Positions 1 through 46,298 of a stretch of 64,000 nucleotides of DNA are shown piece after piece; position 1 is the first letter of the stretch; each line of letters starts with the position of its first letter. The notes beneath the pieces were generated by a model that saw only the letters and a list, made by a program, of their open reading frames with translations, had not been told where the DNA came from and made no database searches. Origin of the DNA: Candidatus Omnitrophota bacterium (GTDB lineage Bacteria > Omnitrophota > Gorgyraeia > Zapsychrales > Fredricksoniimonadaceae); assembly GCA_015233675.1 (NCBI GenBank), contig JADFXH010000006.1:65285-129284 (forward strand), in the 5' to 3' direction. A program made the translations under genes and the position numbers.

Positions 1-24
1 GAGGGTAAATCCTTTTTTTTTCAT
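1..24 (-). CDS. 5' end (first 8 codons, MKKKGFTL) of a further type IV pilin-like gene running off the left edge
   Basis: Reverse complement of 1-24 reads ATGAAAAAAAAAGGATTTACCCTC, the same start as the pilin genes ending at 991 and 1513. It is preceded by the same AAGGAGTCAAATA RBS block (25-40). Confidence 0.5.
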
Positions 25-45
25 TATTTGACTCCTTAAGAAAAC

Positions 46-534: not shown

Positions 535-991
535 TTAAAAAACGTGTTCCGTCCATAGTTCGACAAAGAAATATAGTACTATTCCCAAAAGCGGTCTGGT
601 TTTGTCCATCGGTACACACCTTTGGAAAAGTTATTGTGCCGAATTGGCCATCAGTGGGGCGAATAGTTGCCGTAATTAAGTAGTCGTACGTATATGGAGG
701 GTTAGGAGATATGTCTGAGCCACCGTAAAAATATGTAAAATTAGGTGAAGTAGGGATTGGGAGGTTGTTTGCTTGAGTATAGGCACTGCTAAAATCCCCG
801 TTGTTTATGATTATATTTTTAAAAAAGATGCCCTCAATAGTATCTGCGTAACTTTTTAAAGTAGCCGCGGCCTCAGCAGCTTTCGAACGCTTAACCCAGC
901 TATAATATGACGAGAAAGCAATAGCCGCTAGAATACCGAGAATAACCAAAACGATAATGATTTCGATGAGTGTAAATCCTTTTTTTTTCAT
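503..991 (-). CDS. type IV pilin / pseudopilin-like protein
   Basis: MKKKG|FTLIEIIIVLVILGILAAIAF is a prepilin leader plus N-methylation-type helix. AAGGAG RBS lies 7 nt upstream. The C-terminus LCRTMDGTRFLIGSGVFNGVF is shared with neighbours. Confidence 0.9.
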   Translation of the reverse strand: MKKKGFTLIEIIIVLVILGILAAIAFSSYYSWVKRSKAAEAAATLKSYADTIEGIFFKNIIINNGDFSSAYTQANNLPIPTSPNFTYFYGGSDISPNPPYTYDYLITATIRPTDGQFGTITFPKVCTDGQNQTAFGNSTIFLCRTMDGTRFLIGSGVFNGVF

Positions 992-1012
992 TATTTGACT
1001 CCTTAAAAAAAT

Positions 1013-1513
1013 TTAGAACATGCCGCTGTAAATTCCGGTACCAATTATATTACGTGTGCTGTCAAGATTTCGACAAAGATATACGGTACTATCGGAAAGG
1101 CCGATAGTGAAACCAGAGCTAGGCCATGAAGAGCACGGATTTTGATAATTTCCTGGACCTTGACCATCACCGGGGGTAATAGTTGCGGTAAGTATGTAGT
1201 AATACGTTAAGTAAGGATTCGTATTTATAACGCAGCCGTAAGGGGGTGGCGGACTATAAATAAAATTAGGTGAGGATGGGGTTGGAACGCTAGGCGGCGA
1301 ACAATAGCCTCCAGTGCCTTCAAGCCCATAGGCTCCATGTACATAAAGAGCGGCGTCAAAAGCATCTGCATATTGTTTTAAAGCAAGTGCAGCCTCAGCA
1401 GCATTCGAACGCGTAACCCAGTTAAAATATGACGAGAAAGCCAAAGTCGATAAAATACTGAGGATAATCAAAACAACGATGATCTCAATGAGGGTAAACC
1501 CTTTTTTTTTCAT
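1013..1513 (-). CDS. type IV pilin / pseudopilin-like protein
   Basis: MKKKG|FTLIEIIVVLIILSIL leader and helix. The first ~150 nt are conserved with 503-991 and the centre is variable. C-terminus is LCRNLDSTRNIIGTGIYSGMF. Confidence 0.9.
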   Translation of the reverse strand: MKKKGFTLIEIIVVLIILSILSTLAFSSYFNWVTRSNAAEAALALKQYADAFDAALYVHGAYGLEGTGGYCSPPSVPTPSSPNFIYSPPPPYGCVINTNPYLTYYYILTATITPGDGQGPGNYQNPCSSWPSSGFTIGLSDSTVYLCRNLDSTRNIIGTGIYSGMF

Positions 1514-1634
1514 TTATTACCTTTTTTTATTTAAATTAACATTATTTACAAAGATTAGCAATAAGGGCCTCAAAATTTTCTGCATTTAGATTCCCGCGAG
1601 TTTTCCTCTCACGCTTGCTTTTAGTCTATTTATA

Positions 1635-4600
1635 TTGCATATTTATACTATGAGAGCCCCATGTGTCCATATAATTATTTTAACAGCTTTTTTGGCTAAT
1701 ACATTTGGCCCTGTGCCAATGGCCCGAGCTCAAGATTTTCGATTGCCCGCACCCGGGGTCATGGTCCATTTAAGTCCGCCGCTTGATCCTCCCATACTTA
1801 AAGGGATTAAGGTCCATCCTGATGATCCGTTTCGGTTTGATTTTATTTTGGACAAAGGAGATATGCCGACCAGGGGACATGTTCAAAATAGAAAAACAAA
1901 GAACGTGTCCCCAAGCACGTTGCCAAGCGAGTCAGGGTTGAATGTAAAAGCATCCCAGGGAGAGAACCCAACGCAAAACGAACAGGAATTACGAATTGAA
2001 TCCACAAAATTAATTAAATATTTTCTCGCCAGTTTGACCATTCCTGAGAAAGACTTATGGGTTAACCTAAGTCCTTACGAAAAGGACCGAATCATCCCTA
2101 ATTCATTTGGGCTTACAGAAATGGGCCGTGATTTATTGGCTGAAGACTATATGCTCAAGCAGATAACGGCTTCTTTAATTTATCCGGAAGATGAAACAGG
2201 TAGAAAGTTTTGGAAACGTATTTACGAAGAAGCATTTAAGAAGTACGGGACAACGGATATTCCGGTCAATACCTTTAATAAAGTTTGGATAGTACCCCAA
2301 AAAGCTGTGGTCTATGAAAATGCTAAAGCAGGAACTGCATATGTGGTGGAATCGAAATTAAAAGTAATGTTGGAACAGGATTATCTTTCATTTGAGAAGC
2401 ACCAAATGCCAACCAGGGGACATGTCCCCGCATTTGGGGACGTGTTCCCAAGCACGTTGCCAAGCAAATCTAGGGCAGAAGGTGAAAGCGCCCCAGGGCA
2501 ATCTCCGTCAGCCTTACCATATCAGGAAACCAATGCCCTAGGCTCCCAAATCGTCCGTGAGATTGTCATTCCTGAATTGACCAAAGAAGTCAATGAAAAC
2601 AAGAATTTCGCTAAATTACGCCAAATTTATAACTCGCTTATTCTAGCGACTTGGTACAAAAATAAAATTAAGGAAAGTATTTTATCGCAAGTTTATGCAA
2701 ATAAAAATAAAGTAGCCGGCGTTAGTGTAGATGATCCGCAAGAAAAAGAGAGGATATATCAGAAATATTTAAGGGCGTTTAAAACAGGTGTTTTTAATTA
2801 TATTAAAGAGGGTGTTGCTTCAACAACTCAAGAAACCATGCCAAGAAAGTATTTTTCCGGAGGGGTTAACCTGGCTTTTGAGGGTACCAATTTTAGAGAG
2901 GCGGCTATGACAGCTGCTAATCCAGCACAAGTAAGTGCAGCTATTAATAAGATTACTGAATTTAATCGTGCAATGAAGGTCATTGTGGATATATCCCAAA
3001 GTAATCAAGGATCGCCTGCAATAAATAGCACAACGATGAGCGGTGTGACTGTGCAAGGAGAAACCAGGACTGCAAAGACCTGGCCGGCCAGCAAGGATGG
3101 GAAGAGATATTACCTTTATGTAAATGAGAAAGGGCGTGTCTGGCAAAGGCTGATTAATGGCTGGATTGCGGGACAGACCGGGGTAAATTTTCCTAAAGTT
3201 TTTAGAGTCGAGGGTGAAGATTATCTGAATAATCCTGATATTGCAAAGTATTGGCGTAATCGGCGAGGAGAAACGGCTGCTTATTTGGCAGCCGATATCA
3301 ATGATATGACTGTTGCGGACCTTAATGATTCAGGATCGTCCGGGTTGGAGGCCGGTCTGGTCTACTTACAGTTCTCAGGGGATCATGATATTGATTTCAA
3401 TGTAGGCTCTCCATATAACGTAATCGTTTTGAATCTAGGAGGGAAGAAAAGATATATCTATTATGATTTTGAGTTTAGTTACTATGATTCATCGAGCAGT
3501 TCACAGAAATTCATGTTGCATGGAAGTAACGCGTTCAAAAAGTACTGGGTAAGGAAGATCAATGATCTTTCTGCGCAACGGGTTGTCGATGCGCTTCGGA
3601 AGATTTATGCAATCACGACGGACAGTCTCAGTTTGGCGGCGGGCCTTTGGGGTGTTCCTGCCAATCAGATTGATTTTGTAAAATTTGAAAAACGCAAGAA
3701 ACAGAGCGTCGAAGAGATTATCCAGGGGCTAAAGGGTTTACAGCAGTCCCAGCGGGTGAAAGTGCTTTTGAATGCTATCGAAGACGCTGGTTTTTTAAAC
3801 AATCCTGATCAGGCTCTTCCTAGAAGTTTCGGCCCCAATACAGGAAAAGTGTTAGGGACTAAAAGAATAGATGCCGCGATGATGTCCGACTCTTCGTTCG
3901 CTAATGGTCACTCCTTAGCGTATGATTCCGCGGGGAAAATACTTGTTGTCAAAAGGCTGCAGGAAAGAAAAACAGATATCTTTGAACCGATAAATAAAGG
4001 AGGAGAAAATAGCGACATTTTTGATTTAGGAGATTCGGTTGTTCGAGTTCTAAAAGATAAATCTTTAGAATATAGTCCCAAACAGCTTGAAATTATTAGT
4101 TTATTAGGGCAGAGAGGCGCCAGTCCGCGTTTATTATCTAATCCGGGCAGAACAAAAGAAGGTAATTTTTATCTGCATCTTGAAAAGGTTCAGGGAGAAA
4201 ATGTGGAAGAGTTGATAGGAAGAAAAGGGAAGTTGGATGATGTAGAGATAGAAGCAGTTAAAAGACTTGTAGATATTCTTATCGAGGAGAATATAGTCGA
4301 TGATGATTTTTATATAAATAACATTATGTTAGGACGTACGCATCCGGGGGCCCCTTTAGGTGCTTTTTTGGTAGATTTTGATTATTTAGAGAGGGTCAGG
4401 TTCAGAGCTGAAGCTATTGATAGCTATATCGTAGATTTTGAAACAATGTGGAAAAAAGCAGATCCAGACGGGCATATTGTAAAATATTTGAAAAAACGGC
4501 TCTCGGCGCAACTTTTACAAGGAAACAGCGTGCAGTTTGGTCTTCAAAATCAGGAGATGATACATAGTGAAGATTTAGATTTTAATCCTGATACAACAAC

Positions 4601-5963
4601 GCTTGTTATTAAGGGTAAAAGGGGAAAAGCCCGTTTTTTAAAGTTGATCTCGGAAGGAATAAATAGTTGGATATATGATTTCGATGATTATTCAACTATC
4701 AGGGTCATGAAAACAAAAGATTTTGAAAAGACTTATCCTATAGGAATAATTAGAACGCTGGGGGAAAAAGGTGTTGTTCCCAAGGTGCTTTCAGGTCAAG
4801 GAGTAACAAAAAATGGATATTATTATTTCCATTTTCAAAAGCTTAAAGGTGTGGATGTTAACAGCATTGTTCAAGAAAAAGGGGCGCTAAATTCGGGACA
4901 GATTAATGCGGTTGCTAAACTTTTAGATATTCTTATTAAGAATGGGATATTTGTTCATGAATTCAAAAATATTTCTAAGGTCATGCTAAAGCGAGTAAAT
5001 AAGGATTTATGGTCCGCTTATTTGGTTAATACTGATATGTTTGAGGATGTGAATGAGGAAATAATACGAGATAAGAGCTATTTAATCAGGCGGTATTTTC
5101 AGGTTTTGTCGCTGGGTGGTTGGTACCGGGCTGATCGGAAAAGGAGTCTTTTTGATCATTTGTACCAGAAACTCCCGGATAATCAAAAGCTTAACGATGC
5201 AACAGAAAAAAAAGAAAACGGCCCTTCATTGACCGAAAACCATCAGTCAGATCAGTCAATGATGGCAGAAGTAAATCGCCAAACGGAATATAAGGGGAGG
5301 TTTATGTATGATAATAAGAGGTTCAATCTGGGTAGTGATTATAAGAATAGGGACGTTATTTTAAAACCTATTGATGAAGATTGGCAAAAAGGCTGGGGTG
5401 TTTATACAGGTGATAAGTTGATCGCTGTTTATAAGAATGATAAGTTTATAGTCTTGGAAATAAAGCGGCGAACGGAAAATAAGGGGAGGTTTGTGTTTAA
5501 TAAAAAGAGGTTTAATCTTGGTATTGATAATAAGAATAAGGACGTTATTATAAAGCCCATTGATGAAGATTGGCAAAAAGGCTGGGGTGTTTATATCGAT
5601 AAGCATTTAATTGCTGATTACAGAACGGTAGATGATTCTTTTATTTTATATTTTGGAGAAATTGAAAAGGATTTAAATGATCCTGCCTTAAGAGGGTTAG
5701 GGGAAGAAAATGGCGGTATAGACTTTAGCCCTGTCAATATGAATTTACAGACTAAAGTAGAAGATTCCCGCTTTCGCGGGAATGACAACGTGAAGGGCGG
5801 GGATGTTAATGGAGGGATTAAGTTTTATCTTGACCCTGCCGTGCTCCAGCAACTCCAAAATGCCCCTGGTTTTGTGCCTGTCATTATCAATATCCAGCCG
5901 ATAATAAATTTGCGTCAATTTTTGGGCATAAAGGAGAATGCCCTTGTTAAAGGAAACGTATAA
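1635..5963 (+). CDS. large modular secreted protein A. Order: signal peptide, family N-terminal domain, unknown module, two kinase-like domains, 2 x 63-aa repeat, family C-terminal tag
   Basis: Uninterrupted 1442-codon ORF. The likely true start is ATG 1650 (MRAPCVHIIILTAFLANTFGPVPMARA|QDF). The N-domain is homologous to 9881-10945. The C-terminal ~80 aa are homologous to the ends of 7414-9009 and 9881-15319. Confidence 0.85.
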   Translation: MHIYTMRAPCVHIIILTAFLANTFGPVPMARAQDFRLPAPGVMVHLSPPLDPPILKGIKVHPDDPFRFDFILDKGDMPTRGHVQNRKTKNVSPSTLPSESGLNVKASQGENPTQNEQELRIESTKLIKYFLASLTIPEKDLWVNLSPYEKDRIIPNSFGLTEMGRDLLAEDYMLKQITASLIYPEDETGRKFWKRIYEEAFKKYGTTDIPVNTFNKVWIVPQKAVVYENAKAGTAYVVESKLKVMLEQDYLSFEKHQMPTRGHVPAFGDVFPSTLPSKSRAEGESAPGQSPSALPYQETNALGSQIVREIVIPELTKEVNENKNFAKLRQIYNSLILATWYKNKIKESILSQVYANKNKVAGVSVDDPQEKERIYQKYLRAFKTGVFNYIKEGVASTTQETMPRKYFSGGVNLAFEGTNFREAAMTAANPAQVSAAINKITEFNRAMKVIVDISQSNQGSPAINSTTMSGVTVQGETRTAKTWPASKDGKRYYLYVNEKGRVWQRLINGWIAGQTGVNFPKVFRVEGEDYLNNPDIAKYWRNRRGETAAYLAADINDMTVADLNDSGSSGLEAGLVYLQFSGDHDIDFNVGSPYNVIVLNLGGKKRYIYYDFEFSYYDSSSSSQKFMLHGSNAFKKYWVRKINDLSAQRVVDALRKIYAITTDSLSLAAGLWGVPANQIDFVKFEKRKKQSVEEIIQGLKGLQQSQRVKVLLNAIEDAGFLNNPDQALPRSFGPNTGKVLGTKRIDAAMMSDSSFANGHSLAYDSAGKILVVKRLQERKTDIFEPINKGGENSDIFDLGDSVVRVLKDKSLEYSPKQLEIISLLGQRGASPRLLSNPGRTKEGNFYLHLEKVQGENVEELIGRKGKLDDVEIEAVKRLVDILIEENIVDDDFYINNIMLGRTHPGAPLGAFLVDFDYLERVRFRAEAIDSYIVDFETMWKKADPDGHIVKYLKKRLSAQLLQGNSVQFGLQNQEMIHSEDLDFNPDTTTLVIKGKRGKARFLKLISEGINSWIYDFDDYSTIRVMKTKDFEKTYPIGIIRTLGEKGVVPKVLSGQGVTKNGYYYFHFQKLKGVDVNSIVQEKGALNSGQINAVAKLLDILIKNGIFVHEFKNISKVMLKRVNKDLWSAYLVNTDMFEDVNEEIIRDKSYLIRRYFQVLSLGGWYRADRKRSLFDHLYQKLPDNQKLNDATEKKENGPSLTENHQSDQSMMAEVNRQTEYKGRFMYDNKRFNLGSDYKNRDVILKPIDEDWQKGWGVYTGDKLIAVYKNDKFIVLEIKRRTENKGRFVFNKKRFNLGIDNKNKDVIIKPIDEDWQKGWGVYIDKHLIADYRTVDDSFILYFGEIEKDLNDPALRGLGEENGGIDFSPVNMNLQTKVEDSRFRGNDNVKGGDVNGGIKFYLDPAVLQQLQNAPGFVPVIINIQPIINLRQFLGIKENALVKGNV
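1863..1929. repeat. in-frame palindromic element, copy 1 (ATGCCGACCAGGGGACATGT..ACGTGTCCCCAAGCACGTTGCCAAGC)
   Basis: Near-identical ends to the copy at 2406-2466. Internal inverted repeat GGGGACATGT/ACGTGTCCCC. Translates as MPTRGHV..PSTLPS. Confidence 0.8.
2406..2466. repeat. in-frame palindromic element, copy 2
   Basis: ATGCCAACCAGGGGACATGTCCCCGCATTTGGGGACGTGTTCCCAAGCACGTTGCCAAGC. Same termini as copy 1. It sits in a loop that is short in the paralog at 9881. Confidence 0.8.
5283..5650 (+). repeat. tandem 189-bp (63-aa) coding repeat inside protein A
   Basis: The units start at about 5286 and 5475. ATTGATGAAGATTGGCAAAAAGGCTGGGGTGTTTATA occurs verbatim in both. At peptide level the repeat is KGRF.(Y/F).NK+RFNLG.D.KN+DVI.KPIDEDWQKGWGVY. 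Confidence 0.9.
5764..5786. repeat. small hairpin element ATTCCCGC-TTTC-GCGGGAAT(GAC) embedded in frame (peptide SRFRGNDN)
   Basis: Perfect 8-bp stem. Related hairpins occur at 50375-50392 and 43615-43664. It corresponds to an insertion relative to the C-terminal tag of 7414-9009. Confidence 0.75.
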
Positions 5964-6132
5964 TCCTCTTTTTTTTATCGTTGATTAAAATCCAATAAAA
6001 ATGCTTTGCCAAAGTCGTTTATGATGATAAAAAGAATCAAGTTCTACAACTCGCTTCATGAAGGGAATATTAACCAAGGGTTAAATTATAGACGATGGCT
6101 TCCCATATCTTCAAGCATAAAAAGGGAGAGTT

Positions 6133-7347
6133 GTGAGAAATATTCCTTTGCCTCTTATAGTTATTCTTTTCTTATCTGCTAGCTTTTCTTTCGCCGATGA
6201 TGGTGTTCTTTTTAAGAGTCAAAGAGAATTTTTGGCATCTAAAGGACTTACGTTTGATCCTTATGTCATTGAAGATTATGCCAGTATTTATAAAGGGGGC
6301 CTTATTGATAATAATACCTGGCTTGGGCGGTTTGATTTTGTCAGTGAATTTGATTTGGAAAAAGCGGGACTTCTTAAAGGGGGACTGGTCCATTTAGATG
6401 TTTTAAATGCGCATGGCGGTTTAAAACCGACGACTGACCATATGGTCGGTGATTTACAAATTGTCAGCGACATTGAAGCTACCCGTTCAAGCCGTATTTA
6501 TGAGGGATGGTACAGCCAAAGTTTTTTTGATAATAAATTATCAATAAAATTTGGTATAGTTGACCTGGGTTCGGAATTTTTAGTCAGTGATTCAGGCAAT
6601 CTTTATATCAATAGCTCTCTTAATCTTCTGCCTTCTATGTGGTTCAACAATTATAGTGATGCGGTCTATCCCGAGCCTGTCCCGGCAGTAAGGTTTAAAT
6701 ATTCTCCTAATGAACATTTCGATTTTTTAGCGGGATTGTTTCAAGGTAATCCTTTAAATAGCGATATTAACGCCCATAGTACTCATTTCGGTGATGGAGA
6801 AGGCCTTTTGAGCATTGAAGAAGGGCAGTATCATTATAAATTGCCTATAGCTGAAGGGTTGGCGGGAACCTTTAAAGGAGGTTTTTGGTATAACAGCAAA
6901 GATGTGCAGGATGTTTCTTCTCTTGATTCTAGCGGCAATCCGCTCTTATACGACGACAATTATGGGGCATACGCTATGATTGACCAGAGGGTGTTTCAAG
7001 TCAATGAGAGCCAGGGGCTTAATGTATTCTTTTTTGGCGGTGGCGCACCCGAAGACCGTAATACAATACAAGATTCTTTTGCGGGCGGACTTAATTATAC
7101 TGGACTTATACCTTGCCGTCCCAAGGACGTAACAGGGGTTGCTTTGACCAATGCTGCTATTAGCAATAAATTGCGCGCAGTAACAGGTCAGGATAAAGAT
7201 GAGACAACGTATGAATGGACGTATCAAATTAAAATCAAAGATAATATTTTTTTGCAGCCTGATATTCAATATGTCCAACATCCAAACGGTAACAATGCCA
7301 TCAAGAATGCCAGCGTTTTTATGTTGAGAACCGAAATTCATTTTTAA
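6133..7347 (+). CDS. carbohydrate-selective porin OprB-family-like outer-membrane beta-barrel
   Basis: Signal peptide (LFLSASFSFA|DD). N-terminal pattern KGLTFDPYV.EDYASIYKGGL....LGRFDFVSEFDLEKAG.LKGG..HLDVLNAHG is typical of OprB porins. Terminal aromatic residue (..RTEIHF). Confidence 0.6.
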   Translation: MRNIPLPLIVILFLSASFSFADDGVLFKSQREFLASKGLTFDPYVIEDYASIYKGGLIDNNTWLGRFDFVSEFDLEKAGLLKGGLVHLDVLNAHGGLKPTTDHMVGDLQIVSDIEATRSSRIYEGWYSQSFFDNKLSIKFGIVDLGSEFLVSDSGNLYINSSLNLLPSMWFNNYSDAVYPEPVPAVRFKYSPNEHFDFLAGLFQGNPLNSDINAHSTHFGDGEGLLSIEEGQYHYKLPIAEGLAGTFKGGFWYNSKDVQDVSSLDSSGNPLLYDDNYGAYAMIDQRVFQVNESQGLNVFFFGGGAPEDRNTIQDSFAGGLNYTGLIPCRPKDVTGVALTNAAISNKLRAVTGQDKDETTYEWTYQIKIKDNIFLQPDIQYVQHPNGNNAIKNASVFMLRTEIHF

Positions 7348-7413
7348 GAGTGGACAGCAAAGTTGTGCGATGGATAATATTTGTTTCAGGGTTTAATTGT
7401 CATGGGGTAGTCG

Positions 7414-9009
7414 GTGCCATTAATAAAAGGAGTCCCGGGTTTGTCAGACAGGTCCCATAATCTGGCTTTTACTATAATAGAACTAGTCATAGTCATTTCG
7501 GTATTGGCCAGGATGGGATCTTTCTTATATTATAAAATAGCCAATGGCAATACGGAGACGGCGAATGCCCTTGCTTTTGCTTATGTTGATGATTGTATAG
7601 AAATGATCATGTCAAAAGGAACGGGGCCTTTTAATGATTGGTTTTTTTTGCAAAGAGCGCTTAAAGGGTCAAAGAAAGAAAAAGAGGGTATTATCAAAAG
7701 AGAATTTTTGAGGAGGACCCTTTCTGGCGAAATGAATAATATTTTTAGGAAAGAAAAGATTCGGATGGGCATGGAAATTGTGGGCTTGTCGGTTGCATGG
7801 GCGGTCTATTCCGGAATCGGATATGCTTTTAACCAATGGGATCCAAGGGCCAGGCAAATGGGGTTATCAACGCAGGAAGATCGTGGAGCAGGCATGCCCC
7901 AGCTGTCCCAGACAATTGAAGATCTTATGGAAGGACCACCTTGGCAAGCCCCGCAGGCAACAGAGCCAGAACTCTCTGGGCAGACATCCCCGGAGCACCA
8001 GCCGGATGCCGACGGCAGAAAAATGAAAGAAGAAAGGCAAAAAACGAAGGCCTTTAGCAATGCGCTGGTAGGGAGGGTCAGGACAACGCTGAGAATAAGG
8101 ACGGATATAGCAGGGCCTGATCTGGACAGTTTTTATGACATCGTTGAATCATTGGCCTTGCCGGACGGTCTTCTCTCCGAAGTCATAGCGCCTTTTTCGA
8201 CCCCTGCAGAGTACTTTGAGTCCCTTCAAAGGGGCAACAGGCTGGAAGATGAGGATGTTATTGACGGGGAGGACGTTTTTCCGTCTGGTGGGTTTCCATT
8301 AAACCCCATTTATACTTTCAAGACGGGGTTGCTGACTAAGGCATGGGACGATCCAGCCAATCAAAGGAAGATCATCGATAGGATCAATAATGTTCTGGCT
8401 GACAGCCTGGAGGCCCCTGCTTATATGTATCCTGATTATCCGGGACTTTATCGGTTGCGCCTGGCAGGTCAAGGGTCTGTCGAATTGAGGGTGTATGTAA
8501 AGTCTTATAACCAAGAAGGGCAAAGAATATTGGTGATCATTGGGGTTGCCTCGAGCAATGAAGTCCATCAGAATGGAAAGAAAAGAAAATTGGAAGACGA
8601 CGTCACGGGGATCTTAGAGAAATTTAAGCCCAAGGCTGTTTATGGCACGTTCGATAAATTGCAGGCTTCCGGTCTTGATCTACAGAAAATGCAGGATGCG
8701 GCGATGGATGCGTTGGGAACCGATGAATTATCTTTTGAGGGGATACATTCTCCTTTAAATGCGATGAATAAAAATGTTAATATGGGAAATGGTGAATCGG
8801 AAATTTATAAAGGTGGTATTGACTTAAGCTCTGCCGGCATGAATTTACAAACACAAAATAACGCTGGAGGAATCAAGTTCCATCTTGATCCTGCTAAGCT
8901 AGCGCAACTTCAAAACGCCCCCGGCTTTGTGCCGGTAATCATTAATATTCAGCCAGTAACGGACCTTAGGAATTTCCTTGGGTCAGCCGATGGAAAGAGG
9001 GGGCAATAA
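7414..9009 (+). CDS. modular protein B with a pilin-like N-terminal helix, a second TM segment, a RelE/ParE-like core and the family C-terminal tag
   Basis: 531-codon ORF. A better start is TTG 7441, 8 nt after AGGAG (7428-7432), giving MSDRSHNLA|FTIIELVIVISVLA. The C-terminal GGIDLSSAGMNLQT..GGIKFHLDPAKLAQLQNAPGFVPVIINIQP matches protein A. Confidence 0.8.
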   Translation: MPLIKGVPGLSDRSHNLAFTIIELVIVISVLARMGSFLYYKIANGNTETANALAFAYVDDCIEMIMSKGTGPFNDWFFLQRALKGSKKEKEGIIKREFLRRTLSGEMNNIFRKEKIRMGMEIVGLSVAWAVYSGIGYAFNQWDPRARQMGLSTQEDRGAGMPQLSQTIEDLMEGPPWQAPQATEPELSGQTSPEHQPDADGRKMKEERQKTKAFSNALVGRVRTTLRIRTDIAGPDLDSFYDIVESLALPDGLLSEVIAPFSTPAEYFESLQRGNRLEDEDVIDGEDVFPSGGFPLNPIYTFKTGLLTKAWDDPANQRKIIDRINNVLADSLEAPAYMYPDYPGLYRLRLAGQGSVELRVYVKSYNQEGQRILVIIGVASSNEVHQNGKKRKLEDDVTGILEKFKPKAVYGTFDKLQASGLDLQKMQDAAMDALGTDELSFEGIHSPLNAMNKNVNMGNGESEIYKGGIDLSSAGMNLQTQNNAGGIKFHLDPAKLAQLQNAPGFVPVIINIQPVTDLRNFLGSADGKRGQ

Positions 9010-9045
9010 CCCTACGGAGTTGAAGAGAATATAAGTTTATGGTTG

Positions 9046-9074
9046 TTGACCGCGAGCCTTCAGGATGATAAAAT
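9046..9074 (+). promoter_or_regulatory. sigma70-type promoter candidate (TTGACC-17-TAAAAT) reading into the repeat region and tRNA-Pro
   Basis: TTGACC at 9046-9051, 17-nt spacer, TAAAAT at 9069-9074. Confidence 0.4.
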
Positions 9075-9100
9075 ATCGCCCTTGTATAACAACAAAGATA

Positions 9101-9490
9101 TTCGGGAAGGCAAGACGGCCTGCGGAAGGCAAACTTTCTGGGAAAGAATTAAGGAGGTTTGCACATCTCCCGGAGTTTTTCTCTATTGATCCCTGAAGGT
9201 TGTTCTTTTAAAGTCTGAGGAAGCGCAAACGGAAGGTAAACTTTCCTAAAAAAGAATTGTGGAAGTTTCCACATCTCCCGAAGCCTTTCTAAAAAAAATT
9301 ATTTCTGAATTCGGGGGGCAAACGGAAGGCAAACTTTCTGGGAAAGAATTAAGGAGGTTTGCACATCTCTCGAAATTTTTCTCTATTGATCTCTGAAGGT
9401 TGTTCTTTTAAAGTCTGAGGAAGCGCAAACGGAAGGTAAACTTTCCTAAAAAAGAATTGTGGAAGTTTACACATCTCCCGAAGCCTTTCT
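9101..9490 (+). repeat. 2 x 200-bp tandem non-coding repeat containing four copies of a ~52-nt structured motif
   Basis: 9123-9290 and 9323-9490 differ at 5 of 168 positions. The submotif GGAAGG(C/T)AAACTTTC..AAAGAATT..GGA(G/A)GTTT(G/C/A)CACATCTC(C/T)CG starts at about 9124, 9231, 9324 and 9431. Confidence 0.9.
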
Positions 9491-9522
9491 AGATGTAATT
9501 CTGATTAGTTTATGGTAGCTTT

Positions 9523-9596
<74 letters not shown>

Positions 9597-9880
9597 CTTT
9601 TTAGAATTTTCGGCTTCGGATGAGTCCTGTGGAATTTTCGAGAGATTAATTTTATAAAAGAATAAAGATTTTTTTGGATGCGTTGTAAATGTATATCCCC
9701 CAATATGTTGTCTAATCTTGATTAGGCGCCCCCGAGTTTGACAACCCTAAAATATGTGTTACCTTTTAGTAAGGTAACGCTTTCTCTAATCTATTCATTA
9801 TAAATTTTTCTTAGCTTCCCATTAAGTTCCCTGTCTTTATCCCAAAGAGGGGGCGCAGGGAAGTCCAAAAAGGACAAATA

Positions 9881-12800
9881 ATGTTTAAACGTTTTATTGC
9901 TTCGTTTGTTTGTCTTACCTTTATTTTTAGTAATTTCCAATATGCCCATGCTCAGGACTTTAGCATTAATCAACTTCCCGTGCCCGGGACAATGGTGGGG
10001 GTTTCCGCACCGTTTGCGCCTTTGACCTTAAAAGGACTGATCGTCAATCCCCAAAAACCGCTTGAGTTTCAATTTATCATTGATACCGGCCGCGGCCCGC
10101 AGGCCACCGCGGCAGTTAAAGATCAAGCCAATCAATTAGTTAAATATTTTTTAGTCGGACTGACCATCCCCGAAGGTGATCTGTGGGTCAACTTATCACC
10201 TTATGAAAAAGACCGCATGGTCCCTCAAGCTTTAGGCCAAACGGATTTGGGACGGGATTTACTAGCCCAAGACTATATCCTCAAGCAGTTGACCGCTTCT
10301 CTAATTTATCCGGAGAGAGATTTAGGCAAAGAATTCTGGAGCAGGGTATACGCAAAAGCCCAAGTGCAGTTTGGCACAACTAATGTTCCTGTTAACACCT
10401 TTAATAAGGTATGGATATTGCCTGATCAGGCGCAGGTGTTTGAAAATGTGAATGCTGCTTATGTTACCCAATCAACTTTAAAGGTGATGTTGGATGAGGA
10501 TTATTTAGCATTGGGGAAGAATAATTCCCCCCGCCCTAACCCTCCCCACCAGGGGGAGGGAAATGACACTCATACCTTTGCTTCACAAATCGTCCGTCAA
10601 ATCGTCCTTCCGGAAATTGAAAAAGAAGTCAACACCGGCAAGAATTTTGGGCCGTTACGCCAAATCTATCAAGCCCTGATCTTAGCTAAATGGTATAAGG
10701 AAACTATTCAAAACGGCCTTTTGGATGCGGTCTACACCAATAAGAAGAAGGTTGCCGGGGTCAACTTAGAAGATCCTGCGGTCAAAGAGCAGATTTATAA
10801 TCGATACCTCCAAGCCTACAAGAAGGGGGCGTTTAACTATATTAAAGAAAGCCCAACACCTGACGGGCAGGTTGTGCCGAGGAAGTATTTTTCGGGTGGG
10901 ACTCAAATGCGTATACCTTTTCTTAGCAGAACTCATGATGAAGCTATGCTATCAAAGCGGAAAATCGGGACTTTGTTGGCATTGACAATTTCTTTGACTG
11001 TATTGATGCCATCTGGGGCAGCATATGCTAATTATCAGAAGCATGTGCCTACGTCAAATCATCAACATCTTTCTCAAAAACAAGGCGAAAAGATCGTAAA
11101 TGAATTAGTGCAGGATATTAAACATGACAACCCATACACTAACGGCTTATTATTTGTCGGGAATGTTAAGAAGACTGACAAGGGGTATTTCTTATTAAAA
11201 AGTACCGATGTGATGATTGATACGCCTAAGACAAAGGGGATTTTATATATTTCACCAGATGTTGTAGCTGAAGTGGGAAAGAATTATATGGGGCCTAGGG
11301 TTAATTCCTTTGTTACCTTAGCCAATTTTCCTTCCCATATTGAGTATAGAAAAATGATGGTTAAATTGACAACTTTATCTAATCCGCCAGCTGTTCGCAT
11401 TGCTGCTGCAGTGGCTTTACGAAGAATGCCTGGTTCCAGCCTGATTCCGGATCTTATAAATATGTTGAAAGACCCTAATCCAGATGTACGGCTTGCGGGG
11501 GTTATAGCATTAGGCAGTAATGCGTTTGAGGTAGAAATTGGTGCTTTTCAGGAAAATGGACGTAAACTTCCGAGTAAGATCCTTTTACCATATTCGAATA
11601 ATCAGGTTTTTTCTGCCCTTGAAAGTTATTTGAAATTAGGGGTAAGAAATGATGACATGCCATTTATTTTAGAGACCTTGGTGAATCTTAGACCAGCTTT
11701 ATCAAAATCAAAAGTTGCCCATGATCTGATTAGGACCGTCCCTGTGGTGACCAGTCCCGATAAAGACATGGAAGGGTTTTTGCGACAAAGTTATTATCGG
11801 TTAAAAACAGGTCTCGCTGATAACGCCATGGCTAGTAACAGGCCCATTTTGCGTAAATTCGTAACTGGAGCGCTTGCTGCTGTATTATTAGCAGGGACTA
11901 CAGCAGAACCTGTTTTAGCACAAAGTAATGCGTTAACTATTTCTTCGACAGCGCCGATATCAGGATATTCTGTTGATAAACAAAAGGGAGAAGAAATAAC
12001 GTCTCTAGCTTCCGATCAACAGTGGCAAGCCAGAGGCGAAGAAGTAATAGATCAATTAGTAAAAGATATTGGAGATAGTCTTAAAAATTTAAATTGGCGC
12101 ATAGATGCCATAGTAGTCGATGCTAATTGGAAATACCCATTGCTTAAAAGTACTGATGTGTATATTAAAAGATCGGATGGTTCAATAGCTATTTTTAAAC
12201 CAGGACCAGGGGCATTAAGGGAGGAGGGGAAAAGCTATTGCGGAGCAAATACCGATCCTTTTATAACTTTGGCCAATTTCCCCCCGTTACCAGAATTTAG
12301 GAATAAGTTGGTGCGCTTGCTAAGTTCTCCTATTCCTGCAGTACGAGCGGCAGCTGCAATAAGCTTACGGGGAATGCCGGATAGAACCCTTATTCCACAT
12401 CTAGTTAAATTATTGGGAGATTCAAATCCCGATGTCCGCCTTGCTGCGGTCATAGCATTGGGCAGCACTGAAAGTGATATTAAACGAACATCCTCAGAGA
12501 AAGACCCTCAAAAATTATTTCTTGGGTTATTGAATCCCTATGATAATGAGACGGTGTTTTTTGCTTTGAAGAAATATATCAAAGGTGGAGTTAGAAATAA
12601 AGATGTTCCGATTATCCTAGAAACTTTAATTAATCTGCAAATTAATTCGCATGAAGACGGGTTTTTCCAGATAGTCCCAAAAGTTGATAGCCATGATAAA
12701 AACATGGAGAAATATTTGCAAAAATCTTATCTTCTGTTGAAAAGTAATATTCTTTCAAACAAACAGTCAACTTTTGAAGAATTAGGAGAGGCTGCGGGGC

Positions 12801-15319
12801 GAGGCGATCTTATGAAGGTTAAATTCTATATCGCCCACGGAGTTAATATCAATGGGAAGGATCAATTTGGCTGGACGCCTTTGATGTATGCGTCTAAATA
12901 TAATAATGAAGACGTAGTGAAGTTCCTTTTAAATCATGGTGCAGACGTTAATCTTAAGAATCATGACGCAAATACGGCTTTAATTGAAGCATCTTTTCAG
13001 GGGAATAGAAATATTGTGGAACTATTGTTAGATAAAGGGGCTAAAATTAACGCGAAAGATAAGAATGGGTACACTCCGTTGATATCTGCTTGTATATCTT
13101 CTGCAGACAATGTTGTAGAATTGCTGATTGATGGAGGAGCAAATATTAATGCCAAAGATACGAGGGGTTGGACAGCACTGAGGTGGGTACGTAATCAATT
13201 GAATGTGTTTCATGGCCCCAATATTGATGCCAAAAACAACCGTATCTTAACAATCCTCTTATCGCATGGAGCGAAGGATAATGCCATGTTCAGCCCAAGT
13301 TCTATATTGCGTAAGCTGGTAAATGGGTTGTTTGTCTCATTATTATTAGTAGGAATTATAACAAAACCGGGTTTGGCACAAAGCAATAGTTTTCCTCAAG
13401 CTTCAAGTAATTCAAAGACGCAAGCCAGTAAGAATTCTGATCCTGCATATGTTAAAGCACAGATTGATCAGTTTATGGCAAAAGCTAAAGGCAGTTTAGA
13501 TAAAATTTTGGATAGTCAGTCTTTTAAGCATATGAAAGATGTAAAAGGGGTGTTAGAACTTCAAGAATATATGGTTAAATCCGGTTATAATTTTGATAAT
13601 TTTCTTGGGACAACTCCAAGAGCAGATGAATTAATAAAGATGGGAAAATCAGCAGTTCCTGTGCTCAGGACTTATTTAAGCAATCCAGATAGAAGTATTC
13701 GTATGCTTAGCACAGGAGCGTTAGCGTTTATTTCTGATAAGAGCGCTGTTAATGATTTAAAAAAGTTGGCAAGCTCAGATCCTGAATGGATTGTTAGAGC
13801 ATTTTCTGTTTACGGGGTAATTTCTTCAACAAAATCAGAGGAATCTGTGCCTTATGGTTTAGATATTTTACGGGGGAAAGACCCCTTTATTGTTAAAGTG
13901 TTTGCAATTAATGCGATGAACAGCTATGGAGGAGGAGTTGCTACAGATGCTTTCTTAAAAGAGCTTAAAGGAAGCAGCGATGATATGTGGCTTTCGGCAG
14001 TTTTCGGATTAGGGTTATCTGCAGGGATTGAATTTCGAGCGGGTGAATTTAACGAAACAATGAAGGTGGCCTCTTTAATAGAGGCCTTAAAACAAAGTGG
14101 AATTGATATTCCGGTTGCAGATACTCCTATTGACTCATTGAATGAGTTATTAACAGATCAAAACTTGTTCAAAGTTATGAAAGTGCGGCCGGCAGAAACT
14201 CTGCCTCCCATTATGGGGCAATTAGAACAGGGAAGACAATTGGATCCTTCAGATATTATTAGGTTGAATAGGATTCTAATAGAGGCCAATTATCCATTGC
14301 AAACTCCTAAGAATAAAACATTGTCTCTGCTATTAGGGTCATTAGAAAGTTCAAATTCCAGAGTTCGAGCAGGCGCAATTGTGACTTTGAATGAAAGTAA
14401 TAATGAAGATATATTACTTCGCAGAGAAAACAATTCAGACCAAGACTTTAATGCCTTAAATATTATGTTAAACAGTAAAAATGAGGATGTTCGAGCTCTA
14501 TGTTTGGTGGCGATAGTAAAGTATTCGCCAAAATCAAAAGCAAAAGGAGTTCTTAAAAAGACTTTGAATGATCCAAGTCAAAAATTAAGAAGTGTGGCAA
14601 AACAGCTGTTAAAAGATATTGATGAGCCAGACAATGCAATGCTTATGGAAACGGCATTAAAACAAACCCAAGATACGGCGATGAACGCGACCGTGCGCTT
14701 GAAAAAAGGAGGGGATGTTGCAAGGAAGGTTTATGAACAAACATACACAGTATTAGAAGAATTATATGCGCGGCATGATTTTGACAAGGTAGCAAGGTTT
14801 CTTCTTTTATTGGCATCAAGAAAGCTTGTATTTCCTGAAGGTGAAAAGGACAGGCTGCAGAGCCGTAACGTTCTCCTTTTACAGCTCGAAGGTGAAGGTT
14901 TTGTTAACGAGATTATGTCGATTCTTAAGGATAGTGGTGCTGCCGTATTTGAGGGGGAGCCGACACTTGCTGGTGTCCGTAGCATAGAAGTGTCTGAGGA
15001 TGTTGTGAAAGTTCTACGTGCCGGATTGTATTCTATGAACCGTAGTGATAACTATGGTTTGCAAGACCCTCGGGATCTTACGGTTCCTGATGGAGCGATG
15101 ATAGGCAATAATACAGGTGGTATAGATCTTAACCAAATTAACGTCTTACACAATGGCAAGACAGTTAATGTCCAATTTGACCCCGCGCAATTATATGAAC
15201 TCATGCAGGGAGGGTTTGAAGGTTTTTCGCCGGTTATTATTAATATTACGCCTATTCAAAGTCCGTTGCCGTTGTTGGGTATCGGTACGGTCAATGAAGG
15301 GGGCTTGGCCAAAGTATAG
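9881..15319 (+). CDS. giant modular secreted protein C. Order: signal peptide, family N-terminal domain, three HEAT-repeat modules each with its own internal signal-peptide-like segment (ankyrin repeats sit in the second), a fourth module, divergent family C-terminal tag
   Basis: Uninterrupted 1812-codon ORF. MFKRFIASFVCLTFIFSNFQYAHA|QDF signal. N-domain homologous to protein A (LWVNLSPYEKDR, NTFNKVWI.P, PRKYFSGG). PBS-lyase-type HEAT motifs (P.VR.AA..AL, D.NPDVRLA.VIALG). ANK repeats at about 12790-13200. C-terminal GGIDLN..FDPAQL..GF.PVIINI.P. Confidence 0.9.
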   Translation: MFKRFIASFVCLTFIFSNFQYAHAQDFSINQLPVPGTMVGVSAPFAPLTLKGLIVNPQKPLEFQFIIDTGRGPQATAAVKDQANQLVKYFLVGLTIPEGDLWVNLSPYEKDRMVPQALGQTDLGRDLLAQDYILKQLTASLIYPERDLGKEFWSRVYAKAQVQFGTTNVPVNTFNKVWILPDQAQVFENVNAAYVTQSTLKVMLDEDYLALGKNNSPRPNPPHQGEGNDTHTFASQIVRQIVLPEIEKEVNTGKNFGPLRQIYQALILAKWYKETIQNGLLDAVYTNKKKVAGVNLEDPAVKEQIYNRYLQAYKKGAFNYIKESPTPDGQVVPRKYFSGGTQMRIPFLSRTHDEAMLSKRKIGTLLALTISLTVLMPSGAAYANYQKHVPTSNHQHLSQKQGEKIVNELVQDIKHDNPYTNGLLFVGNVKKTDKGYFLLKSTDVMIDTPKTKGILYISPDVVAEVGKNYMGPRVNSFVTLANFPSHIEYRKMMVKLTTLSNPPAVRIAAAVALRRMPGSSLIPDLINMLKDPNPDVRLAGVIALGSNAFEVEIGAFQENGRKLPSKILLPYSNNQVFSALESYLKLGVRNDDMPFILETLVNLRPALSKSKVAHDLIRTVPVVTSPDKDMEGFLRQSYYRLKTGLADNAMASNRPILRKFVTGALAAVLLAGTTAEPVLAQSNALTISSTAPISGYSVDKQKGEEITSLASDQQWQARGEEVIDQLVKDIGDSLKNLNWRIDAIVVDANWKYPLLKSTDVYIKRSDGSIAIFKPGPGALREEGKSYCGANTDPFITLANFPPLPEFRNKLVRLLSSPIPAVRAAAAISLRGMPDRTLIPHLVKLLGDSNPDVRLAAVIALGSTESDIKRTSSEKDPQKLFLGLLNPYDNETVFFALKKYIKGGVRNKDVPIILETLINLQINSHEDGFFQIVPKVDSHDKNMEKYLQKSYLLLKSNILSNKQSTFEELGEAAGRGDLMKVKFYIAHGVNINGKDQFGWTPLMYASKYNNEDVVKFLLNHGADVNLKNHDANTALIEASFQGNRNIVELLLDKGAKINAKDKNGYTPLISACISSADNVVELLIDGGANINAKDTRGWTALRWVRNQLNVFHGPNIDAKNNRILTILLSHGAKDNAMFSPSSILRKLVNGLFVSLLLVGIITKPGLAQSNSFPQASSNSKTQASKNSDPAYVKAQIDQFMAKAKGSLDKILDSQSFKHMKDVKGVLELQEYMVKSGYNFDNFLGTTPRADELIKMGKSAVPVLRTYLSNPDRSIRMLSTGALAFISDKSAVNDLKKLASSDPEWIVRAFSVYGVISSTKSEESVPYGLDILRGKDPFIVKVFAINAMNSYGGGVATDAFLKELKGSSDDMWLSAVFGLGLSAGIEFRAGEFNETMKVASLIEALKQSGIDIPVADTPIDSLNELLTDQNLFKVMKVRPAETLPPIMGQLEQGRQLDPSDIIRLNRILIEANYPLQTPKNKTLSLLLGSLESSNSRVRAGAIVTLNESNNEDILLRRENNSDQDFNALNIMLNSKNEDVRALCLVAIVKYSPKSKAKGVLKKTLNDPSQKLRSVAKQLLKDIDEPDNAMLMETALKQTQDTAMNATVRLKKGGDVARKVYEQTYTVLEELYARHDFDKVARFLLLLASRKLVFPEGEKDRLQSRNVLLLQLEGEGFVNEIMSILKDSGAAVFEGEPTLAGVRSIEVSEDVVKVLRAGLYSMNRSDNYGLQDPRDLTVPDGAMIGNNTGGIDLNQINVLHNGKTVNVQFDPAQLYELMQGGFEGFSPVIINITPIQSPLPLLGIGTVNEGGLAKV
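10520..10567. repeat. in-frame G/C palindromic element (AATAATTCCCC..CCCTCCCC-ACCA-GGGGGAGGGAAATGAC)
   Basis: Hairpin at 10540-10560. The same element with the same AATAATTCCCC flank lies intergenically at 29917-29955. It translates as NSPRPNPPHQGEGND. Confidence 0.8.
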
Positions 15320-15440
15320 AGAGAGAATTTGTTGTTCTTCATTTCCCGCCCCCTGTGGGAGACTTAGGGAGGGGGCATCGACGCGAATAAGTAGATGAAT
15401 AAGTTTTGCTCAAGATTGCTATTTATGATATTTTTAAATC

Positions 15441-16325
15441 ATGAATGGACGGCCTATACTTATATTTTGGTTTGGATTAGGCGTTTTAATACAGGCAATT
15501 TTACTGATCCAAAGCGATTTAAAATGGGGGAAACTCGCCGGCTGCGTTGGGCTTGGGCTCTGCGGGATGTTGCCCGGGAAACATGAATATAATTATGAAT
15601 TGTTGCCCCATATATTTATTTGTTTTTGTTTATTTGCTGTTAGCTTTGCCATGTTCTTCAAAGAAGATATTTTGCCTGTCATTAGTGAAAAAGTTCTTTT
15701 GTCCTACTCGTTAATATTCTGGTTTTCATTTTTTTCGTATTTTTATAAAGATGCATTTATACACAAGTTTTTATTCTTTCTATTCTTGATCCCAAGTTTG
15801 GCTACTGTTTTTATTGCTTTTATAAAATTAAAATTGAATTTTTGGGGGAAATTATTCTTTTATTCCTGGTTTCTGATCATTGTTGTTGCTTTGGGGCTGT
15901 TCAGGTTTTCCTTTAGCCATTTTTCTTTATTTTTTGATGAACAGCATGTCCCGTGGTTCGGCCCCATCGATTGCGCATTAACAGGAATGGCTTTCTTGTA
16001 TATTATTGTTAACGCCACGTATATATGGGAGCTTATTCCGCTGCGAGGGAAAAATCAATCTTGGAAAAACAGGATGAAAGAATGGCATGAATTAACCAGC
16101 CTTATGACACAGCGCTGTGATGGTCAACAGCCTACACACTTACAAACGATATTGATTCTTGTTTTGCAGGGAGGCGGATTGTTTATTAATTATCTATATC
16201 ATTTAATTCCCGCTGATTTGGTTGTCAATGTGTTAATTTTGCTCCCAGCAGTTTTGTTGATGGGTAACAGTACGACAAAAATAGCGCTGCAAGGCTCTAT
16301 GGAAGCAATGTCTAAAGAAATATAG
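15441..16325 (+). CDS. polytopic integral membrane protein, unknown function
   Basis: 294-codon ORF with about 8 hydrophobic segments. No family recognised. Confidence 0.6.
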   Translation: MNGRPILIFWFGLGVLIQAILLIQSDLKWGKLAGCVGLGLCGMLPGKHEYNYELLPHIFICFCLFAVSFAMFFKEDILPVISEKVLLSYSLIFWFSFFSYFYKDAFIHKFLFFLFLIPSLATVFIAFIKLKLNFWGKLFFYSWFLIIVVALGLFRFSFSHFSLFFDEQHVPWFGPIDCALTGMAFLYIIVNATYIWELIPLRGKNQSWKNRMKEWHELTSLMTQRCDGQQPTHLQTILILVLQGGGLFINYLYHLIPADLVVNVLILLPAVLLMGNSTTKIALQGSMEAMSKEI

Positions 16326-43602: not shown

Positions 43603-43632
43603 CTTCAACGTGTCATTCCCGAATGTCGGAGA

Positions 43633-43655
43633 CCCCGCCAAAGGCGGTGGTTTTT
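43633..43655 (+). terminator. Rho-independent terminator candidate nested in an ATTCCCGA/TCGGGAAT outer hairpin
   Basis: CCGCC-AAA-GGCGG stem-loop followed by TGGTTTTT. The outer stem is 43615-43622 / 43657-43664. Confidence 0.5.
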
Positions 43656-43692
43656 ATCGGGAATCCAGGAGGTAACCATTATTGTCTTATAT

Positions 43693-46265: not shown

Positions 46266-46298
46266 AAAAACCTCTGTATTTGGATTTAGTATACCGTG

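Follow-up and report, generated by a model that had tools for sequence, protein, structure and literature searches.

We analysed a 64,000-nucleotide stretch of a contig from a Candidatus Omnitrophota metagenome-assembled genome (MAG) (JADFXH010000006.1, positions 65,285 to 129,284; hereafter the window), in which three genes, here called A, B and C, encode proteins whose final ~65 residues align with one another. These residues form a C-terminal tag that recurs in other Omnitrophota, and protein B, the subject of this analysis, joins the tag to a pilin-like N-terminus and to a body for which no relatives were detected. The order of genes in this part of the window is pilins-A-OprB-B-repeats-tRNA-Pro-C-membrane protein-small open reading frame (ORF)-ligA, and the features that bear on protein B are collected in Table 1. 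In the original prediction, made from the letters of the DNA, protein B was read as a toxin of the RelE/ParE fold carried on a pilin-type anchor. This combination is not supported by the sequence tests, and the pieces of which protein B is made suggest another interpretation.

Table 1. Features of the protein B locus (window positions; aa, residues of protein B counted from TTG 7441)
Feature	Position	Strand	Remarks
Protein A	1635..5963	+	Typical family member: Sec signal, conserved N-terminal domain, variable middle, tag
OprB-family porin gene	6133..7347	+	Between A and B; Pfam OprB 2e-58
Promoter-like site TGGACA-16-GATAAT	7351..7378	+	Between OprB stop and protein B start; consensus scan 10/12; pattern match only
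Shine-Dalgarno AGGAG	7428..7432	+	Read from sequence; 8 nt before TTG 7441
Protein B coding sequence	7441..9009	+	522 aa; stop 9007-9009
Class III (prepilin)-like motif A↓FTIIE and hydrophobic helix	7465..7509	+	Helix Ala9-Ala23, then Arg24 (+15 from Phe+1); N_methyl, Smith-Waterman, hydropathy
Second, weaker hydrophobic segment, ...GMEIVGLSVAWAVYSGIGYAF	7759..7833	+	aa 107-131; KD19 peak 1.26, under the usual 1.6 threshold; Lys/Arg-rich stretch before it
Segment claimed to be RelE/ParE-like, YPGLYRLRLAGQ...EVHQ	8437..8571	+	aa 333-377
Pre-tag linker with DAAM and LNAM	8695..8766	+	aa 419-422 and aa 439-442; copies of the family D-x-A-M junction motif
Family C-terminal tag, GGIDLSSAGMNLQTQNNAGGIKFHLDPAKLAQLQNAPGFVPVIINIQPVTDLRNFLG	8812..8982	+	aa 458-514; 8 residues before the stop
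tRNA-Pro(CGG)	9523..9597	+	Downstream of B; Rfam 68.7 bits; ARAGORN; conserved in loci L024 and L001
Protein C	9881..15319	+	Typical family member: Sec signal, N-terminal domain, HEAT and ankyrin repeats, divergent tag

The ORF at 7414..9009, the TTG start with its AGGAG and the translation given in the original prediction are all present in the sequence. Translation from TTG 7441 starts MSDRSHNLA↓FTIIELVIVISVLA, where the arrow marks the candidate cleavage position. NCBI places the start at GTG 7414, and the resulting protein of 531 aa is identical to HQL12_05470, which is recorded as hypothetical and comes from a Candidatus Omnitrophica MAG. Any longer reading is blocked by a stop codon in frame, TAG at 7408-7410, and the next ATG, the Met of ...ARMGS, lacks a ribosome-binding site comparable with that of TTG 7441. 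In a codon model trained on 20 housekeeping genes within the window, the in-frame log-likelihood ratio of protein B is +0.15 to +0.28 in four out of four segments and the other five frames are negative, with codon-bias values on par with those of A, C, OprB and ligA. The GC content is 0.456 and the GC content at third codon positions (GC3) is 0.465, compared with housekeeping means of 0.444 and 0.448. The open frame, the in-frame codon bias, a composition like that of the housekeeping genes, and an AGGAG and TTG that stand behind a promoter-like site show that the gene of protein B is real, codes for protein and looks native. The GC3 of A, OprB and C is 0.33-0.37, and 0.33-0.40 when a 294-aa membrane protein is included, so that these are AT-richer than protein B and the housekeeping genes, and this gap suggests that the large tag genes differ from protein B in history or in expression level.

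The tag was the strongest part of the original prediction, and it is matched in A, in C and in most of 79 other Omnitrophota loci, which were drawn from GTDB species representatives. The tag of protein B shares 58% identity with that of A (E = 1e-21), matches that of C at E = 4e-6 (tblastn), and is 60-80% identical to the tags in most of the 79 loci; a phmmer search with the whole protein B ORF found tag matches in 75 of them. Essentially all of these loci belong to Omnitrophota MAGs, many of which were deposited as 'uncultured Planctomycetales', and the tag is present in several copies per genome, with at least 4-6 in some. It usually lies 0-25 residues from the stop, as seen in 91 tag-bearing ORFs of the 79 loci. 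The consensus, ~65 aa long, reads D-x-A-M ... GGIDL..NLQTQN..IKFHLDPA.L.QLQNAPGFVPVIINIQP...L..FLG, with PVIINIQP inside; in it, a linker that varies in length and tolerates insertions connects two conserved blocks. A tag profile retrieved 363 proteins at E<=1e-3, none of which has a Pfam annotation over the tag. The tag has no Pfam or NCBIfam match, neither the tag profile nor the N-terminal domain of A has a sequence match in the PDB, and no description of the tag family or of that domain was found in the Omnitrophota literature searched.

The nucleotide diversity of a 28-codon conserved block in 50 tags is 0.17, 0.08 and 0.49 at codon positions 1, 2 and 3, respectively. Because of the excess at third positions, the tag is a selected peptide rather than a DNA repeat; a translated DNA repeat or RNA element was rejected on the same codon-position diversity. 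An AlphaFold2 (AF2) model of the tag, built with a 123-sequence multiple sequence alignment (MSA), is mostly coil with two short helices (predicted local distance difference test score, pLDDT, 65; predicted template modelling score, pTM, 0.26), and this predicted coil fits a peptide that folds on a partner. There is also a palindromic element, AGATTCCCGCTTTCGCGGGAATGACAA (translated as ...DSRFRGNDN...), which lies in frame at window positions 5762-5788, in the linker between the conserved blocks of the A tag. It occupies the same place in tags of L001 (6403, 7221), L002 (8811) and L003 (10062), three of the sampled loci. Sixteen copies of its 16-nt core were counted in the sampled loci, some of them between genes, and the element looks like a hairpin similar to repetitive extragenic palindromes or miniature inverted-repeat transposable elements (REP/MITE) that is tolerated within the tag.

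The D-x-A-M motif was found within 60 aa before GGIDL in 90 of 201 tag proteins (45%), compared with 9.5% of background windows. In the form D/N/E-x-A/S-M it recurs where modules meet: it follows the N-terminal domain, precedes internal hydrophobic segments, and stands 1-35 (mostly 1-15) residues before GGIDL. Its copies lie at 2898, 2964, 3870 and 5250 in A, at 8695 and 8755 in B, and at 10937, 11819, 13277, 14630, 14672 and 15089 in C, where three of them precede a basic stretch and a hydrophobic segment that resembles a signal peptide and ends in AQS or AYA. The motif may mark a site of processing, or it may be a scar left by fusion.

The tag is usually carried by proteins of 1000-3400 aa that have both a Sec signal and, behind it, a conserved domain at the N-terminus. 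This domain (~400 aa, AQAQDFRLPAPGVMVHLSPP...), which is of the type seen in A and C, is present in 44 of the 48 complete tag ORFs of at least 400 aa, and was not found in protein B by phmmer with the domain of A as a query. The N-termini of the tag ORFs listed look Sec-type by eye, no signal-peptide predictor having been applied, and from these N-termini together with the domain it would follow that the tag normally acts outside the cytoplasm. The middles of the family are unrelated even between syntenic orthologues, the ends of which keep 70-80% DNA identity. Deletions and fragments are frequent (L023, L054, L031): the ORF at L023 9710-10180, for example, has collapsed to a signal peptide, the start of the N-terminal domain and the tag, 156 aa in all. 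Tag ORFs elsewhere that lack the N-terminal domain are 3' halves of split genes (L045 2520-7235, L007 6408-10204, L058 315-1983), and among the ORFs without the domain protein B alone has a start and a hydrophobic helix of its own. The split and collapsed genes could reflect frequent frameshifts and deletions, or assembly errors.

At the N-terminus, the motif A↓FTIIE with Glu at position 5 of the putative mature protein stands where a class III (prepilin) signal would place it. The Pfam family N_methyl (PF07963) was the only one to respond to protein B (E 0.009-0.06 over 24,736 models). It scored 13.3 bits with the full-length protein and 16 bits (E 0.009) with the first 70 residues, covering profile positions 3-20 of 27, which is below the gathering cut-off of 21.2. 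For TIGR02532 (cut-off 16.3) protein B was not reported at E<=1, and three neighbouring pilins scored 26-37 bits. In Smith-Waterman alignments protein B scored 47-49 against the pilins of the window, in register from Phe+1 through YY and Y.D..IE, a value equalled in 1 of 3000 shuffles. In a stricter control several unrelated transmembrane (TM) N-termini scored 43-53 against the same pilins, and protein B stood about two standard deviations above the mean. Among the sampled ORFs, the combination of motif and hydrophobic N-terminus was otherwise confined to pilin-like proteins. The original prediction named the motif, Glu5 and their position correctly; the pilin-like character as a whole exceeds chance but is qualified by the N_methyl score, the TIGR02532 result and a short uncharged stretch.

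That stretch is best seen with the PilFind rules (PMC3244431), which ask for [GAS]-x4-[DE] in the first 35 residues, at least 14 uncharged residues thereafter, a single TM segment and fewer than 350 aa. The cleavage motif is present in protein B as A9-FTII-E14 when counted from TTG 7441, or at position 18 from GTG 7414. Only nine uncharged residues (LVIVISVLA) separate Glu14 from Arg24, compared with 22-24 in the window pilins, and protein B, at 522 aa, has one strong TM segment and one below threshold. Ala in place of Gly at -1, also pointed out in the original prediction, is indeed present in protein B and occurs as well in a bona fide pilin of the window (24017..24571, plus strand; N_methyl 29 bits; MKNQKRSA↓FTFIELIIVL...) and in L032:537-1136 (RRA↓FTLTE). 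The window pilin shows that Ala at -1 is used by predicted prepilin signals in the source organism. It is thus probable from sequence comparison that the N-terminus of protein B derives from a class III signal, and it can certainly serve as an export or anchor helix; whether a prepilin peptidase processes protein B is uncertain, and protein B is unlikely to be built into a filament. The helix was also compared with internal TM segments that follow the N-terminal domain in a few family members; a relationship was unsupported, as none of them has the FT.IE motif.

Two other explanations turn on this N-terminus. According to the first, protein B is a true type IV pilin-like subunit, a minor pilin or pseudopilin that is cleaved after Ala9, N-methylated and placed at or near the tip of a filament, where it presents its cargo and tag. 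The motif with Glu5 at 9 (or 18) residues from the start, N_methyl as the sole Pfam match, the in-register alignment, the rarity of the motif outside pilin-like proteins and the Ala-bearing pilin all agree with such a subunit, as does the presence of four pilins and a secretin in the window. Loci resembling type II secretion systems (T2SS) and type IV pili (T4P), as well as genes with class III signals, have been reported near Omnitrophota giant genes (10.1101/2023.11.21.568195), which would also be in keeping with it. The secretin of the window, at 59485..61131 (Secretin and Secretin_N, 9e-49), forms together with a TPR protein a stretch at 59485..61952 on the plus strand, ~50 kb downstream of protein B. 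Large pilin-like proteins are known in bacteria of the Planctomycetes-Verrucomicrobia-Chlamydiae (PVC) group, and this too speaks for a pilin-like subunit. However, protein B stays under the Pfam cut-off and is negative for TIGR02532, has Arg at +15 after 9 uncharged residues instead of 14, exceeds the 350-aa limit, lacks basic residues beside the cleavage site in its leader, and has no pilin-domain homology; unrelated TM N-termini score similarly, none of the ~180 other sampled tag proteins starts in this way, so that protein B is the sole sampled member that does, and the adjacency to pilins is not conserved. We therefore think it quite unlikely that protein B is such a subunit.

According to the second, the N-terminus is either an ordinary Sec signal, possibly cut by signal peptidase I at VLA↓RM, or the opening helix of a membrane hairpin of two helices, and the similarity to pilins is compositional. 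The stretch from L8 to A23, at 16 uncharged residues, is of signal-peptide length and ends in V-L-A followed by Arg; the scores of non-pilin TM N-termini, and a Lys/Arg-rich loop (13 K/R in aa 60-118) ahead of the second hydrophobic segment, point the same way. On the other side, a Glu within the hydrophobic region, five residues after [GA]-F-T, is the hallmark of class III signals, the N_methyl E value over so many models implies a high per-model significance, and the second segment is under the usual hydropathy threshold. Such a Sec signal or hairpin helix seems to us quite unlikely.

Between the N-terminus and the tag, protein B is an orphan. The core (residues 1-450, tag removed) matched only itself among 5.8 billion clusters (k-mer/phmmer) and among 1.84 billion 50%-identity representatives (exhaustive phmmer/HMMER). 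In 5,937 ORFs of the 79 related loci no relative besides protein B was found by lenient phmmer, blastp and blastx. Searches of Pfam, NCBIfam, PADLOC and PHROGs with protein B gave nothing beyond the weak N_methyl match, and a PDB sequence search gave no match. The middle of the protein (aa 30-440) thus appears, from these searches, to have no detectable relatives and no recognisable toxin domain. Since the core is an ORFan, no MSA was possible for protein B, and AF2 run on the single sequence gave a pLDDT of 35 and a pTM of 0.20. An origin of the core from an A/C-like gene, through a frameshift or by antisense reading, was rejected, as blastx in all frames matched the tag alone. Elsewhere in the family, L018 (aa 2291-3330 of the ORF at 2..10219) and L012 (ORF 3..716) carry at least 14 tandem copies of a 56-aa repeat directly before the tag, with the consensus EEQLAKQIRQAHG..SLTSYEI.GQRRYVSMG..G.AYEYVIENGQARKLEGT and also SY..GQR..V..G...V..NG..RKLE. 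Residues 354-386 of protein B resemble this repeat weakly (5.5 bits; 4 of 2000 shuffles as good, p ~0.002, in a post hoc comparison). Protein A has two copies of another repeat of ~60 aa before its own tag, unlike that of L018/L012.

It is within this core that the original prediction placed a RelE/ParE-like fold, by comparison with a RelE gene of the same window. That gene (48468..48728) is genuine (ParE_toxin, 4e-12) and has a ribbon-helix-helix (RHH) partner, or antitoxin, at 48245..48484. A Smith-Waterman alignment of the claimed segment with the RelE core reaches a score of 18 through YRLR/YRVR only, which is equalled by 3917 of 5000 shuffles (78%) and by 57 of 67 window ORFs. BLASTP of protein B against the window RelE gave E = 26, outside the claimed region. 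No Pfam family was found in aa 301-413 at an E limit of 10, under which the speed filters of HMMER drop most matches above ~0.1, and the RelE hidden Markov model (HMM) run on protein B with the filters off (--max) found no match either. In hhalign a 43-sequence RelE profile and aa 287-440 gave a probability of 0.2% over 11 columns in a helix; hmmalign of aa 286-385 to the RelE model aligned one residue, and PADLOC reported no toxin match for protein B. The invariant residues K77, H80 and R81 of the RelE alignment are unmatched in protein B, where the original prediction's alignment would put I, S and S. Nor does an antitoxin or immunity gene, which the original prediction had proposed to look for, adjoin protein B, which itself has no homologous loci: OprB lies upstream, and the repeats and tRNA-Pro, then C, lie downstream. 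Between B and C only one further ORF reaches 60 aa; it is on the minus strand (9791..9973) and overlaps the start of C. The resemblance to RelE/ParE is at chance level.

The low-confidence AF2 model of protein B has a helix at 305-319, strands at 336-340, 347-355 and 363-371, and a helix at 380-393, from which a small alpha/beta module around aa 305-393 is likely, with no tie to RelE. This order of helices and strands fits many small alpha/beta folds, RelE included, and the helix matched by hhalign, though not significantly, is roughly co-linear with YRLR/YRVR; both could be cited for a RelE/ParE-type fold in aa ~290-395 that acts as a toxin-like effector cargo. Such a cargo is very improbable, however, given that every sequence test was negative, that the positions of K77, H80 and R81 hold at best I, S and S, that no antitoxin or immunity ORF adjoins, and that export would carry a ribosome-dependent mRNase away from its target.

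How the present gene arose can be approached through two syntenic loci, L024 and L001, in which the order is ribE-fabZ-[one or two tag genes]-tRNA-Pro-small ORF-ligA-xerC..., with ribE-fabZ in the position of the window pilins. The homology of protein B to these loci opens exactly at the tag (8812) and runs past the stop into the tRNA promoter region, where there is a promoter-like site at 9046-9074. Since the homology starts at the tag, protein B occupies the ancestral 3' end of the locus with a different body, and the tRNA-Pro marks the ancestral end of the tag-gene locus. The arrangement is compatible with a replacement of the cargo by recombination at the tag, or with the remnant of a rearrangement. 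In the latter case protein B would be a young chimera or decaying remnant in which the original 3' end (tag, tRNA promoter and tRNA-Pro) was fused to unrelated open sequence, with no maintained function; OprB together with foreign or novel sequence may have arrived between two tandem tag genes, or tag-to-tag recombination may have taken place. This is supported by the exact start of the homology, by the normal gene of 1489-1882 aa with an N-terminal domain that L024 and L001 have at that position, by an ORFan core seen in one MAG, and by the split genes and the frequent deletions and fragments of the family. Yet a remnant would hardly be expected to keep 522 stop-free codons in a 42-46% GC context, a codon bias equal to that of A, C and OprB in every segment with the composition of housekeeping genes, and a good ribosome-binding site, a promoter-like site and an export-competent helix exactly at its start, and no trace of DNA coding for the N-terminal domain is left upstream. 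We regard a functionless remnant as unlikely.

A role of the locus in delivery through a pilus or pseudopilus, as the original prediction supposed, is not borne out. In the 79 loci, which contain no OprB homologue, neither pilins nor OprB recur beside the tag genes; the syntenic relatives have ribE-fabZ instead of pilins, and 44 of the 48 large members have the N-terminal domain and look Sec-type. No conserved neighbour or machinery of tag genes was found in the same loci, the commonest neighbours being TPR proteins (11 of 79). As the tag genes are dispersed and lack a conserved neighbour, they behave as would be expected for substrates of a shared sorting pathway.

Taken together, we favour an interpretation of protein B as an orphan, exported or membrane-anchored cargo that uses the sorting tag of the Omnitrophota tag family, a mechanism that as a whole we consider about equally likely to be right or wrong. 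Protein B would be made from TTG 7441, and its N-terminal helix, whose hydropathy peak (KD19) is 2.13, would insert into the inner membrane with the N-terminus inside and the C-terminus outside, so that the bulk of the protein and the tag would come to lie outside the cytoplasm; the helix would thus supply the export function that the tag needs. Most likely the helix descends, in degenerate form, from a class III/prepilin signal and acts as an export signal or membrane anchor; cleavage may take place, as of a class III or a class I signal, or the helix may be kept as an anchor. The tag, which does not seem to be globular alone, probably folds on a partner and would direct protein B to the destination of A and C, by outer-membrane translocation or surface attachment. 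The topology, the export and the function of the tag we infer by analogy, from the Sec-dependent majority of the family and from the C-terminal sorting domains of other phyla.

Several observations weigh against this interpretation. The weakly charged leader, the Lys/Arg-rich loop and the second, weakly hydrophobic segment allow other topologies. Some short tag-bearing ORFs have no signal peptide at all, those without the N-terminal domain that were examined in the loci being the 3' halves of split genes. The function assigned to the tag comes from analogy, and no machinery was found near the tag genes. The core has no homologues from which its conservation, selection and structure could be judged, and protein B, which is lineage-restricted, has so far been seen in a single MAG. 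A related idea is that protein B is a natural hybrid, in which the tag pathway accepts substrates that enter the envelope by a class III signal, to which we would give a slim chance. Were it true, the tag would be read by, or pass cargo to, the T2SS/type IV filament-like machinery conserved in Omnitrophota near giant surface proteins, and the tag together with D-x-A-M would be a new phylum-specific system of sorting and processing.

In the region around the tRNA-Pro (9036-9601), a 200-nt unit upstream of the tRNA is duplicated 1.8 times with 97% identity (9123-9491); in L024 and L001 the tRNA is preceded by a segment of which this unit contains copies. Identity to these two loci is 85-89% across the tRNA region, above that of the flanking genes. 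Only in the window do the genes of protein C and the membrane protein (9881..16325) separate the tRNA from ligA, which suggests that these two genes were inserted next to the tRNA. Farther downstream, the stretch at 42679..48728, between the dcw cluster and the glycine-cleavage genes, contains a second tyrosine recombinase (42679..43602), an unannotated 381-aa ORF, a methyltransferase and the RHH/RelE pair (48245..48728), and may be a small mobile island.

Omnitrophota are ultra-small and probably host-dependent or predatory bacteria, and their surface and giant proteins are under active study. The tag and the ~400-aa N-terminal domain, both unannotated in Pfam, NCBIfam and the PDB, appear to mark hundreds of large, hypervariable and probably Sec-exported proteins of this phylum. 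As a candidate phylum-specific sorting signal, the tag could be a handle for listing the secreted and surface proteome of uncultured Omnitrophota and for finding the machinery that handles it. Protein B is an odd member of the family, with its pilin-like start, orphan cargo and host-like codon composition, and it shows that recombination can bring the tag to new cargos.

Three known systems, in addition to the RelE/ParE toxins, invite comparison. With the RelE/ParE superfamily (PF05016 and relatives) protein B shares the four residues YR(L/V)R and an unspecific pattern of residues that alternate as in beta-strands, but its segment has no significant sequence or profile similarity, invariant residues or antitoxin, and lies inside a 522-aa protein predicted to be exported. 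With type IV pilins, pseudopilins and other class III proteins (PF07963; TIGR02532) it shares a short leader, Gly or Ala before the cleavage position, F-T-hydrophobic-hydrophobic-E after it, a hydrophobic helix and a YY ~20 residues in, and the window also codes for canonical pilins and a secretin. It differs from them in its sub-cut-off score, the Arg at +15, the weakly charged leader and its length, and in that it has no detectable pilin globular domain and carries a tag found otherwise on Sec-dependent proteins. The Rhs and contact-dependent inhibition (CDI)-type polymorphic families resemble the tag family in their conserved ends, swapped middles and common fragments and deletion derivatives, whereas the variable part of the tag family is internal rather than C-terminal, and neither immunity genes nor toxin domains were recognised in it. 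The C-terminal domain of type IX secretion system cargos in Bacteroidota (TIGR04183) is also a phylum-restricted module, and like the tag it sits at the extreme C-terminus of unrelated, multi-copy, dispersed cargos that mostly have Sec signals. The two share no sequence similarity, and the tag, with ~65 aa in two blocks around a variable linker, is predicted to be mostly coil rather than a beta-sandwich, and no associated machinery was found; it is in its position and its range of cargos that the tag resembles that domain.

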